Assembly: GCF_047600745.1 (NCBI RefSeq) | Contig: NZ_JASGKI010000006.1 | Location: 496,345-560,344, forward strand | DNA: 64,000 bases | Direction of reading: 5' to 3' | From: Paenirhodobacter sp. | Lineage (GTDB): Bacteria; Pseudomonadota; Alphaproteobacteria; Rhodobacterales; Rhodobacteraceae | In this document: in pieces, positions 200-1,765 of the stretch | How the letters are laid out: each line of letters opens with the position of its first letter | Position numbering within the stretch: position 1 is the stretch's first letter | Notes under the pieces: generated by a model | Databases searched by the model: none | Told to the model about the DNA's origin: nothing | The model's input: the letters and a program-made list of their open reading frames with translations, nothing else | Translations under genes and position numbers: made by a program

Positions 200-302
200 A
201 GATGGCATGACCATTCTTGGCGCTCCCGCCGACGTGGGACAGGATCGCCAATGAGTGATCGCGGTCCGCACTCTTCTTCGGTCCGCAGCCGGAGGAGATG
301 AC

Positions 303-1412
303 ATGGAAGACTACAATGCCTTTATCGGTTTGGACGTGCACAAGGACAGCATCTCGGTCGCGATTGCGGATGCCGGCCGGGATGGCGAAATCCGGATGTA
401 TGGGACAATCGCCAATATGCCCGACGCTATCGCGCGCCTGATCCGCAAGCTGGTGCAGCGACATGGGAAGATCGAGGTGACCTACGAAGCAGGTCCCTGC
501 GGCTATGGGATTTATCGGCAACTCGCCGAAATGGGGATTGTCTGTCGGATCGTTGCACCGAGCCACACGCCAAAGCGGCCAGGTGAACGGGTGAAGAACG
601 ACACGCGTGACGCGCTGATGCTTGCGCGCTTGCTTCGTGCAGGCGAACTTACCTTTGTGTGGGTGCCTGACGCCACCCATGAGGCGATGCGCGATCTGGT
701 TCGGGCGCGCCAGGTTGCGTCGCAGGATGTCCGGGCAGCTCGTGCACTGATCCAGATGTTTCTGCCCAAGCATGGACTGCGGTGCAAGTCGAAGGCATGG
801 TGCCTGCGCTATCGGAAGTGGCTGACATCCCTGCCGCTTGAACATGCTGCCCAGAAGTTCGCACTACAGAGCTATATCAATCGCCTGGATCAGGCTGAGG
901 CCCGCAAGGCCGAGATTGAGGGCCAAATGGTCGATCTGATCCCGGGCTGGACGCTCGCCCCCTTGGTCCACGCATTGCAGGTATTCAAGGGGATAGGGAT
1001 GGTCATCGCCGCGACGCTCGCTGCGGAGATCGGGGACTTTTCCCGGTTTGCCAGTCCGCGCCAGTTGATGGCGTATCTCGGCCTGGTCCCCAGCGAATAC
1101 TCCAGCGGCAGCAAGCAGCGACCTGGCGGCATTACGAAAGCGGGCAACAAGATCGCGAGAGTGATGCTGGTCGAGGCTGCATGGTCGTACAAATGACCTC
1201 CTAAGGTCGGCGTGCTGCTCATGCTGAAACGCGAAAACTACAGCCAAGCGCTGAAGGACATCGGGTGGAAAGCCCAGGTGCGACTGAACCAGCGCTTTCG
1301 GCGTCTCGAAGGCAAAGGAAAGCGGAGCACTGTTGCTGCGGCCGCTGTTGCCCGCGAACTGGTCGGCTTCATCTGGGCGACGGCGATCATCGTGATGCCG
1401 AGGGCTGCCTGA
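303..1412 (+). pseudogene. IS110-family DEDD recombinase with one in-frame stop (TGA 1194-1196)
   Basis: Motifs GLDVHK, YEAG and KNDTRDA (DEDD), plus Tnp-domain GLVPSEYSSG and ITKAGN. The same frame continues after the stop to AVARELVGFIWA, ending at 1412. Confidence 0.9.
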
Positions 1413-1428
1413 ATCCTGCGCGTGCGAA

Positions 1429-1620
1429 TGTTGGCAGTGGCCAGGGCATCTGACGCGGGACGAGGCAAACCGTCGGTCGAGAATTGAGATCCGGAACGGT
1501 CCGGACATCTGACAGCAGAGTGAACGAACGCCTCTGACGCTTACCATAATGGGGTTTCGATCCCCGCATCGGAGTTTGAGCAACCGCCGATTAAGTCGGA
1601 TGCCCTGACCTCTGCCAACA
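1429..1620 (+). ncRNA. Candidate bridge/seek RNA of the IS1111-type element
   Basis: Closing stems 1429-1437/1612-1620 (9 bp) and 1444-1453/1596-1605. Target-matching guides at 1475-1486 and 1513-1517 flank a hairpin (1487-1510). An 8-nt match to the predicted circle junction lies at 1567-1574. Confidence 0.8.
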
Positions 1621-1765
1621 CCGCAAGGAGAACGAACATGACGAACTGCGCTCAAGCCGGGCGGCGGGAAACGCATGCCTATCCTCTTGACGAAGGGTCA
1701 TCGGAATTCTCGACCCCGATCCCGCTTGCCTATCATCCCCCGTTCCGGGGCTTGCTTGACGCAAG

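Follow-up and report, generated by a model that had tools for sequence, protein, structure and literature searches.

A probable bridge RNA gene in the 3' end of an IS1111-group insertion sequence from Paenirhodobacter sp.

The question raised by this locus is whether the non-coding DNA behind a recombinase gene in Paenirhodobacter sp. encodes an RNA whose guide segments spell out both the site in which the element lies and the ends of the element itself. The stretch of DNA analyzed here, called the window below, comprises 64,000 nucleotides of contig NZ_JASGKI010000006.1 (positions 496,345 to 560,344 of the forward strand; assembly GCF_047600745.1), and all coordinates refer to it unless stated otherwise. 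An earlier, sequence-only reading had proposed an IS1111-type bridge or seek RNA at 1429-1620. We conclude, with a probability of roughly 0.9, that positions 200-1704 are an IS110-family element of the IS1111 group and that its 3' end (about 1429-1620, plus strand) encodes a bridge RNA, or seekRNA, of about 190 nt. Bridge/seek RNAs of IS1111 elements have been described since 2024, and a bridge RNA has been predicted in 93% of the catalogued IS1111 elements (PMC11208160); the guide RNA of the present element is a further case of this known kind, without a new mechanism.

The whole element measures 1505 bp (200-1704, plus strand), its ends having been placed by alignment with copies in other sites and by the end pattern of the family. 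It begins with a 7-nt left terminal extension, AGATGGC (200-206), whose first two bases, AG, are the core dinucleotide, followed by a left subterminal inverted repeat, ATGACCATTC (207-216), and it finishes with a right subterminal inverted repeat, GAAGGGTCAT (1692-1701), and a 3-nt right terminal extension, CGG (1702-1704). The right repeat contains one mismatch and reads GAATGGTCAT in relatives; the left and right repeats agree at nine of ten positions in the window and at 12 of 12 in close relatives. Comparison of copies in different sites gave ends with these 7-nt and 3-nt extensions and no target duplication, and removal of 200-1704 rebuilds the empty site ...CTTCCAGC^AATTCTCGACC (^ marks the insertion point here and below), just as the sequence-only reading had claimed. 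Non-coding DNA amounts to 103 nt upstream of the recombinase gene (200-302) as against 292 nt downstream of it (1413-1704). Elements of the IS1111 type are told apart from those of the IS110 type by subterminal inverted repeats, usually of 11-13 bp, by terminal extensions, of which the 7-bp left one is a stated trait of the group, and by a longer 3' non-coding region (PMC11187229). The present element displays these features, and its guide segments stand in the order published for IS1111 (PMC11187229), which supports the proposed IS1111-type bridge/seek RNA.

The recombinase gene (303-1412, plus strand) has 369 codons and is interrupted. Its translation contains a DEDD (RuvC-like) domain (Pfam PF01548, E 5.9e-17) and a C-terminal Transposase_20 domain (PF02371, E 7.8e-23), and residues 260-269, GLVPSEYSSG, correspond to GL-P----S(T)G, a motif in the C-terminal domain of IS1111 transposases (PMC11187229). 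The recombinases of relatives are intact and 369 aa long, a length above the range of 330-350 aa given for the transposases of IS1111 elements (PMC11187229). The nearest named relative of the transposase is ISEc45 (52.7% identity over 296 aa), while ISSso6 shares 43% and weaker matches on Enterobacteriaceae plasmids about 29%. These last matches are annotated just as IS110 family transposase, and we presume that they are of the IS4321/IS5075 type. The supplement of PMC11208160 enters both ISEc45 and ISSso6 under IS1111 and places their bridge RNAs at the right end.

The interruption of the gene is an in-frame TGA at codon 298 (1194-1196), already pointed out in the sequence-only reading, where every relative examined has TGG (Trp). 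It removes 72 residues, many of them at invariant positions. The mismatch in the right inverted repeat is absent from relatives, and the element is the sole full copy in its genome. Because a TGA replaces an invariant Trp codon, an inverted repeat is mismatched and the copy stands alone, we consider the window copy to be probably inert; the gene that it interrupts is likewise no more than a remnant. Continued mobility of this copy, either through reading of the UGA at codon 298 as Trp at a low rate or through recombinase supplied in trans by family members in the same genome, appears rather unlikely to us. It would be consistent with the RNA region, which carries no disabling change relative to 95%-identical relatives, and with the two or three further members of this IS/RNA family that the genome contains (at about 293 kb of G000:C3 and about 327 kb of G000:C1; L002, L003, L005 and L006), whose RNAs match the family profile with E values of 6e-40 and 3e-23. 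In addition, the transposases of ISKpn4 and ISPa25 are just 46% identical and their seekRNAs are very similar, a seekRNA not being rigorously confined to one closely related transposase (PMC11187229). However, the other family members in the genome have transposases that are 51% identical, with different ends and donor guides, and the lost residues, the repeat mismatch and the lone copy all speak against mobility, as does a perfect 16-nt target-like site, CCAGCAGTTCTCGACC, which is unoccupied in an unrelated gene elsewhere in the genome (G000:C4:1352536-1352551, L089). A pattern search of the genome for target-like sites found four, all of them in unrelated genes and all empty. One right end among the same-genome family members looks damaged.

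Behind this interrupted gene, the structured core of the 3' non-coding region (1429-1620, plus strand) is a homologous block present in 51 elements and constitutes the putative bridge/seek RNA gene. The region 1413-1704 folds with z = -3.06, and none of 200 shuffles folds as well. The single-sequence minimum-energy fold paired the guides with other parts of the RNA and did not give the structure of the family, and the alignment-based structure was therefore used. In this structure of 48 pairs, 83% of the cells are paired, compared with 38-47% when partners are slid by one to three columns; 303 cells are changed on both sides, compared with 88 in shuffles (0 of 500 reach the observed value), and 35 of the 48 pairs contain changes on both sides. 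The helices contain many G·U pairs, whose counterparts on the opposite strand would be C·A, so it is the plus strand that is folded, as an RNA-level or single-strand structure.

From 5' to 3', the architecture consists of an outer stem, a short helix, a target loop, a donor loop and a return strand. The outer stem P1 joins 1430-1454 to 1596-1619 by 20 aligned pairs, all of which show compensatory changes in the family, so that the long-range pairing proposed to enclose the whole region is borne out. The target loop is closed by GAGGC (1462-1466) and GCCTC (1530-1534), with family columns GGG/CCC, at the coordinates given earlier, and it contains, in order, a T guide, a hairpin with a conserved AC bulge and a B guide. 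This hairpin, AGAT-CCGG-AACGGT-CCGG-AC-ATCT (1487-1510), had likewise been proposed to lie between two guide stretches, as it does; its seven pairs all show compensatory changes. The donor loop contains a short guide, an invariant hairpin of the GCGG/CCGC type and a junction guide; in the window the hairpin reads GGGG-TTTCGAT-CCCC (1551-1565), and it is 100% paired in 51 sequences. By analogy with the published RNAs, the 73-nt target loop would correspond to a short seekRNA and the whole fold to a long seekRNA or bridge RNA. A search of 1-2400 against Rfam 15 gave no match at E up to 1, which means that there is no fitting model, not that the RNA is absent.

Two further helices cross each other in alignment A4 (columns 32-36 with 177-181 and columns 126-129 with 182-185), both with compensatory changes. 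In the window they fall at about 1455-1458 with 1584-1587 and 1536-1539 with 1589-1592, and the second is weak in the window's own lineage. It is possible that these helices would tie the target loop to the donor loop in the manner of an H-type pseudoknot.

The segments predicted to act as guides were compared with the DNA that they would read. The target T guide, GGTCGAGAATTG (1475-1486), is the exact 12-nt reverse complement of the top strand C^AATTCTCGACC, as previously claimed, and only 1 of 20,000 shuffles of the non-coding region of the window reaches such a match. The target B guide, CAGCAG (1513-1518), has the same sense as the left flank CAGC followed by the core AG, and the T and B guides overlap on C^A. 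The sequence-only reading had paired CAGCA (1513-1517) with the left half of the site: the match itself stands, and G1518 extends it to the left flank CAGC plus the first bases AG of the element, but alone it is no evidence, being reached in 14,931 of the 20,000 shuffles (75%). It is credible only because it lies in columns of the alignment that follow the left flank from one family member to another. In the donor loop, the B guide CATCGGAG (1567-1574) is identical to the predicted junction of the circle, in which the right end CATCGG is followed by the left end AG, again at the coordinates noted earlier; this 8-nt match is reached in 721 of 20,000 shuffles (3.6%). The donor T guide, CCAT (1544-1547), is weak, being complementary over 4 nt only to ATGG in the left end (202-205), which is at chance level in the window. 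Since the 8-nt and CAGCA matches are weak in shuffles, the window alone proves the T guide only, and the rest needs the family. Moreover, the last two positions of the 12-nt match (G1475 and G1476) are in part fortuitous: in the family, G1475 is conserved as the base that closes a stem, and the 95%-identical relatives have A at the position next to it, yet the same target motif.

To obtain the family, one genome per species was scanned, which gave 80 loci with relatives at 45-64% protein identity, and look-ups of closer proteins added loci at 76-96% identity; Pseudosulfitobacter plasmid copies share 83% of their DNA sequence and about 90% of their protein sequence with the window element. Element ends were placed from inverted repeats (ATG.../...CAT, 8-17 bp) in 55 loci, almost all of which follow the pattern flank ^ AG + 5 nt + ATG... 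...CAT + 3 nt ^ AG + flank. A copy of ISSso6 (L101), between virF and ospE2 on an invasion-type plasmid, was left out. Alignment of the 3' regions with MAFFT, to which no structural information was supplied, revealed a single block of homology, about 190 nt long.

Guide segments were taken from fixed alignment columns and matched to the element's own DNA partners and to the partners of other elements in 47 loci. The T guide matches its own partner at 5.79 of 10 positions on average and those of others at 3.52, and the left-flank part of the B guide at 2.85 and 1.28 of four positions. The three variable bases of the donor B guide match the element's own right-end extension at 2.87 of three positions (others, 1.36), and the second donor guide matches its own left end at 3.85 of six (others, 3.12). 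None of 2000 permutations reached the observed value in any of these tests. The expectation that guide positions covary with the insertion sites of homologs is thus borne out for the T, B and donor junction guides in about 50 homologs of 45-96% protein identity; homologs with other targets differ at the guide columns instead of keeping one guide sequence throughout. For the B guide, a test based on the longest exact match barely separated own from foreign flanks, and the column-anchored test alone separated them. Matches between guide and site are poor in some homologs, for example in L014, L094 and the ISEc45 copy.

The permutation tests leave in the shared descent of guide and site, and cases of retargeting are the better evidence. 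One clade (L012, L015, L018, L019 and L035) has transposases that are 80-94% identical and inverted repeats that are identical; at least four of its members (L012, L015, L018 and L035) carry different T guides, each matching its own right flank over 7-9 nt. In L043, where the left end has TG in place of AG, both the B guide and the donor guide have TG and the T guide has AG. The donor guide follows the element's own end, reading CATCGGAG, CATAGGAG, CATGAGAG, CATCAGAG, ATATCAGA or CATAGAAGTC, and the columns of the donor T guide track the left end, with GGTC for GACC and GTCATC for GATGAC.

The site occupied in the window consists of a left half, ...CCTTCCAGC (188-199), whose last 4 nt would be read by the B guide, and a right half, AATTCTCGACCC (1705-1716), which contains the codons ..F-S-T of the remnant of a methylase-helicase gene. 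In the close lineage (76-96% identity), at least seven sequence contexts, or independent insertions, were found, each time at one fixed point within the motif ...(C/G)A(G/C)C^A(A/G)TT(C/T)(T/A)(C/G)(G/C)AC.... In all cases (including L007, L008 and L093-L099) the interrupted plasmid gene reads ...F/L-Q-Q-F-S-T-P...; it goes on with a methyltransferase-like part, in which EPSAGTG and NPPF occur, and a helicase domain of the AAA_34 type, and a ParB-like gene adjoins it. Of this host gene the window retains a remnant, which has a stop at 79-81 and gives way to an IS66 fragment about 55 nt past the insertion (at about 1760). An IS66 transposase gene was considered as the host of the insertion and rejected, as the Pfam IS66 match begins about 55 nt downstream of the insertion.

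The core differs between the two boundaries of the window element, being AG on the left and AA on the right, and a core mismatch is also observed in L096-L099, L023, L040, L060 and L043. The T guide encodes UU, matching AA, in the window lineage, L040 and L060, and the B and donor guides of the window lineage have AG. Opposite the core, the UU of the T guide is complementary to the AA present in the window and its 95%-identical relatives, and it may accept the AG of the Pseudosulfitobacter copies by U·G wobble. Judging from its sequence, the B guide GAUC of L095 can likewise pair with its left flank GACC by wobble.

Another observation concerns the right end, inside which an outward-directed ribosome-binding site, AAGGAG, and an ATG at 1638 (together 1625-1640) were found, reading through 1704. 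The frame from this ATG (M-T-N-...-S-S-E-F-S-T-P) stays in register with the downstream half of the host gene, into which it leads. This outward start is kept in the window, L096, L007 and L008, another start is present in L094, and none is present in L093 and L095. The start could allow translation of the split gene to resume, or it could have arisen by chance.

Could the 3' structure be a DNA or mRNA element instead, such as a transposase binding site, a fold of single-stranded DNA or a 3' UTR stabilizer or terminator, with the complementarity to the flanks arising secondarily from a preference for certain targets? The position of the structure directly behind the recombinase gene would suit such an element, as would a scan of 100-1800 for promoters and terminators, which found no sigma-70-like promoter in the linear element and hence none belonging to the RNA itself. 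The same scan found no terminator behind the RNA, however, and no terminator-like T run follows the structure; G·U pairs are frequent in its helices; and four short segments track the right flank, the left flank, the right end and the left end across about 50 elements, a pattern that a stabilizer or terminator does not predict. In addition, RNAs of IS1111 members have been purified with the protein and reprogrammed (PMC11187229). We therefore regard a DNA or mRNA element as very improbable. That the guide matches are a coincidence in a G+C-rich non-coding region, with the site chosen by protein-DNA contacts alone, can practically be dismissed: CAGCA (5 nt) and CCAT (4 nt) are indeed at chance level in the window, but the 12-nt match is not, all the family permutation tests gave 0 of 2000, and retargeting occurs within a clade of 80-94% identical transposases.

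For the bridge RNA, the following course of events is suggested by analogy with ISEc11 and IS621. The RNA would be transcribed with or behind the recombinase mRNA, probably from a promoter that arises where the two ends of the element meet in the excised circle. A -35-like hexamer, TTGACG, lies near the right end (1687-1692, plus strand) as a candidate half of such a promoter, and TTGAC is kept in the family 12-13 nt from the right end. Across the circle junction (1687-1692 with 205-210), TTGACG would stand 17-18 nt from GCATGA/CATGAC, a weak -10 preceded by TG; other family members have a better -10 at the junction (TATGAT, TATGTT). The arrangement of TTGACG would fit the junction promoter known from ISEc11 (PMC11187229). 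The DEDD recombinase would bind the bridge RNA, as in ISEc11 and IS621. In the target loop, the T guide (1475-1486) would pair with the top strand over the right target half, the core dinucleotide and one base of the left flank, and the B guide (1513-1518) with the bottom strand over the last four bases of the left flank and the core. In the donor loop (about 1536-1590), CCAT would read the left end and CATCGGAG the junction of the excised circle. In this manner the RNA would bring the circle junction alongside ...CAGC^A(A/G)TTCTCGAC...; exchange of strands beside the AG core would then lead to insertion without duplication. Transcription of the RNA, its binding by the protein and its directing of recombination are thus expected from the better studied relatives.

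The closest parallels are the seekRNAs of ISEc11, ISPa11 and ISKpn4 (PMC11187229), in which the RNA is also encoded downstream of the DEDD transposase gene and the guide complementary to the top strand also lies 5' of the guide complementary to the bottom strand, the two overlapping at the insertion point. This order in IS1111 seekRNAs is the reverse of that in the IS110 type (PMC11187229). Also shared with these three elements are subterminal repeats, 7-nt and 3-nt extensions, the lack of duplication, a -35-like box near the right end for a junction promoter and natural retargeting in relatives (PMC11187229). In contrast, the transposase shares little protein identity with that part of the family and has 369 aa, not 330-350 aa, and the target is a coding motif in a plasmid gene, neither a REP nor an attC site nor the end of a transposon.

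The clade of ISEc45 and ISSfr2, listed as IS1111 with a right-end bridge RNA (PMC11208160), is nearer in protein sequence through ISEc45. The 3' non-coding region of ISEc45 matches the RNA profile built from our alignment (nhmmer E 1.2e-6) and has the same layout, with a donor guide AATAAGAG for the right end CATAAG plus AG. ISEc45 differs in its host, an E. coli plasmid, and in its guides and ends, and the site of the ISEc45 copy examined matches its T guide at just seven of nine positions.

IS621 (PMC11208160, PMC11208158, PMC13626964) resembles the window element in having two internal loops, whose left- and right-type guides read both strands of the target as well as of the donor, in a core dinucleotide conserved at both boundaries (CT in IS621, AG in the window element) and in a recombinase with the same DEDD plus Tnp domain architecture. 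Unlike that of IS621, the RNA in the window lies in the 3' end and not in the 5' end, its guide-strand order is reversed, and the element has one long outer stem around both loops and long inverted repeats. Furthermore, the second base of the core can differ between the boundaries, as it does in the lineage of the window and in several others with AG on the left and AA on the right, whereas the core of IS621 is described as invariant.

A few features possibly go slightly beyond the literature, none of them being established: the crossing helices, the AG/AA core, the target in a coding motif and the outward start codon. We put forward only tentatively, and consider doubtful as a whole, the idea that the ISEc45-like clade may use a structurally undescribed bridge RNA architecture, namely a closed fold of about 190 nt with target and donor loops tied by two crossing helices (an H-type pseudoknot) and a T guide whose U at the second core base accepts both AA and AG, and that a sub-lineage may be specialized on the Q-Q-F-S-T-P codons of a plasmid methylase-helicase gene, with an outward ribosome-binding site and ATG restarting the downstream half.

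As the mechanism is already established, what the locus offers is an example and a resource. All four guide segments of the IS1111 type can be read here, in a clean natural setting, against known DNA partners, and the alignment of about 50 relatives separates the programmable columns of the RNA from its scaffold. This alignment could aid the choice and engineering of IS1111-type recombinases, which are less studied than those of the IS621 type. For the family itself, repeated insertion in one conserved coding motif would mean spread between replicons by way of a sequence that selection on the host gene holds constant.
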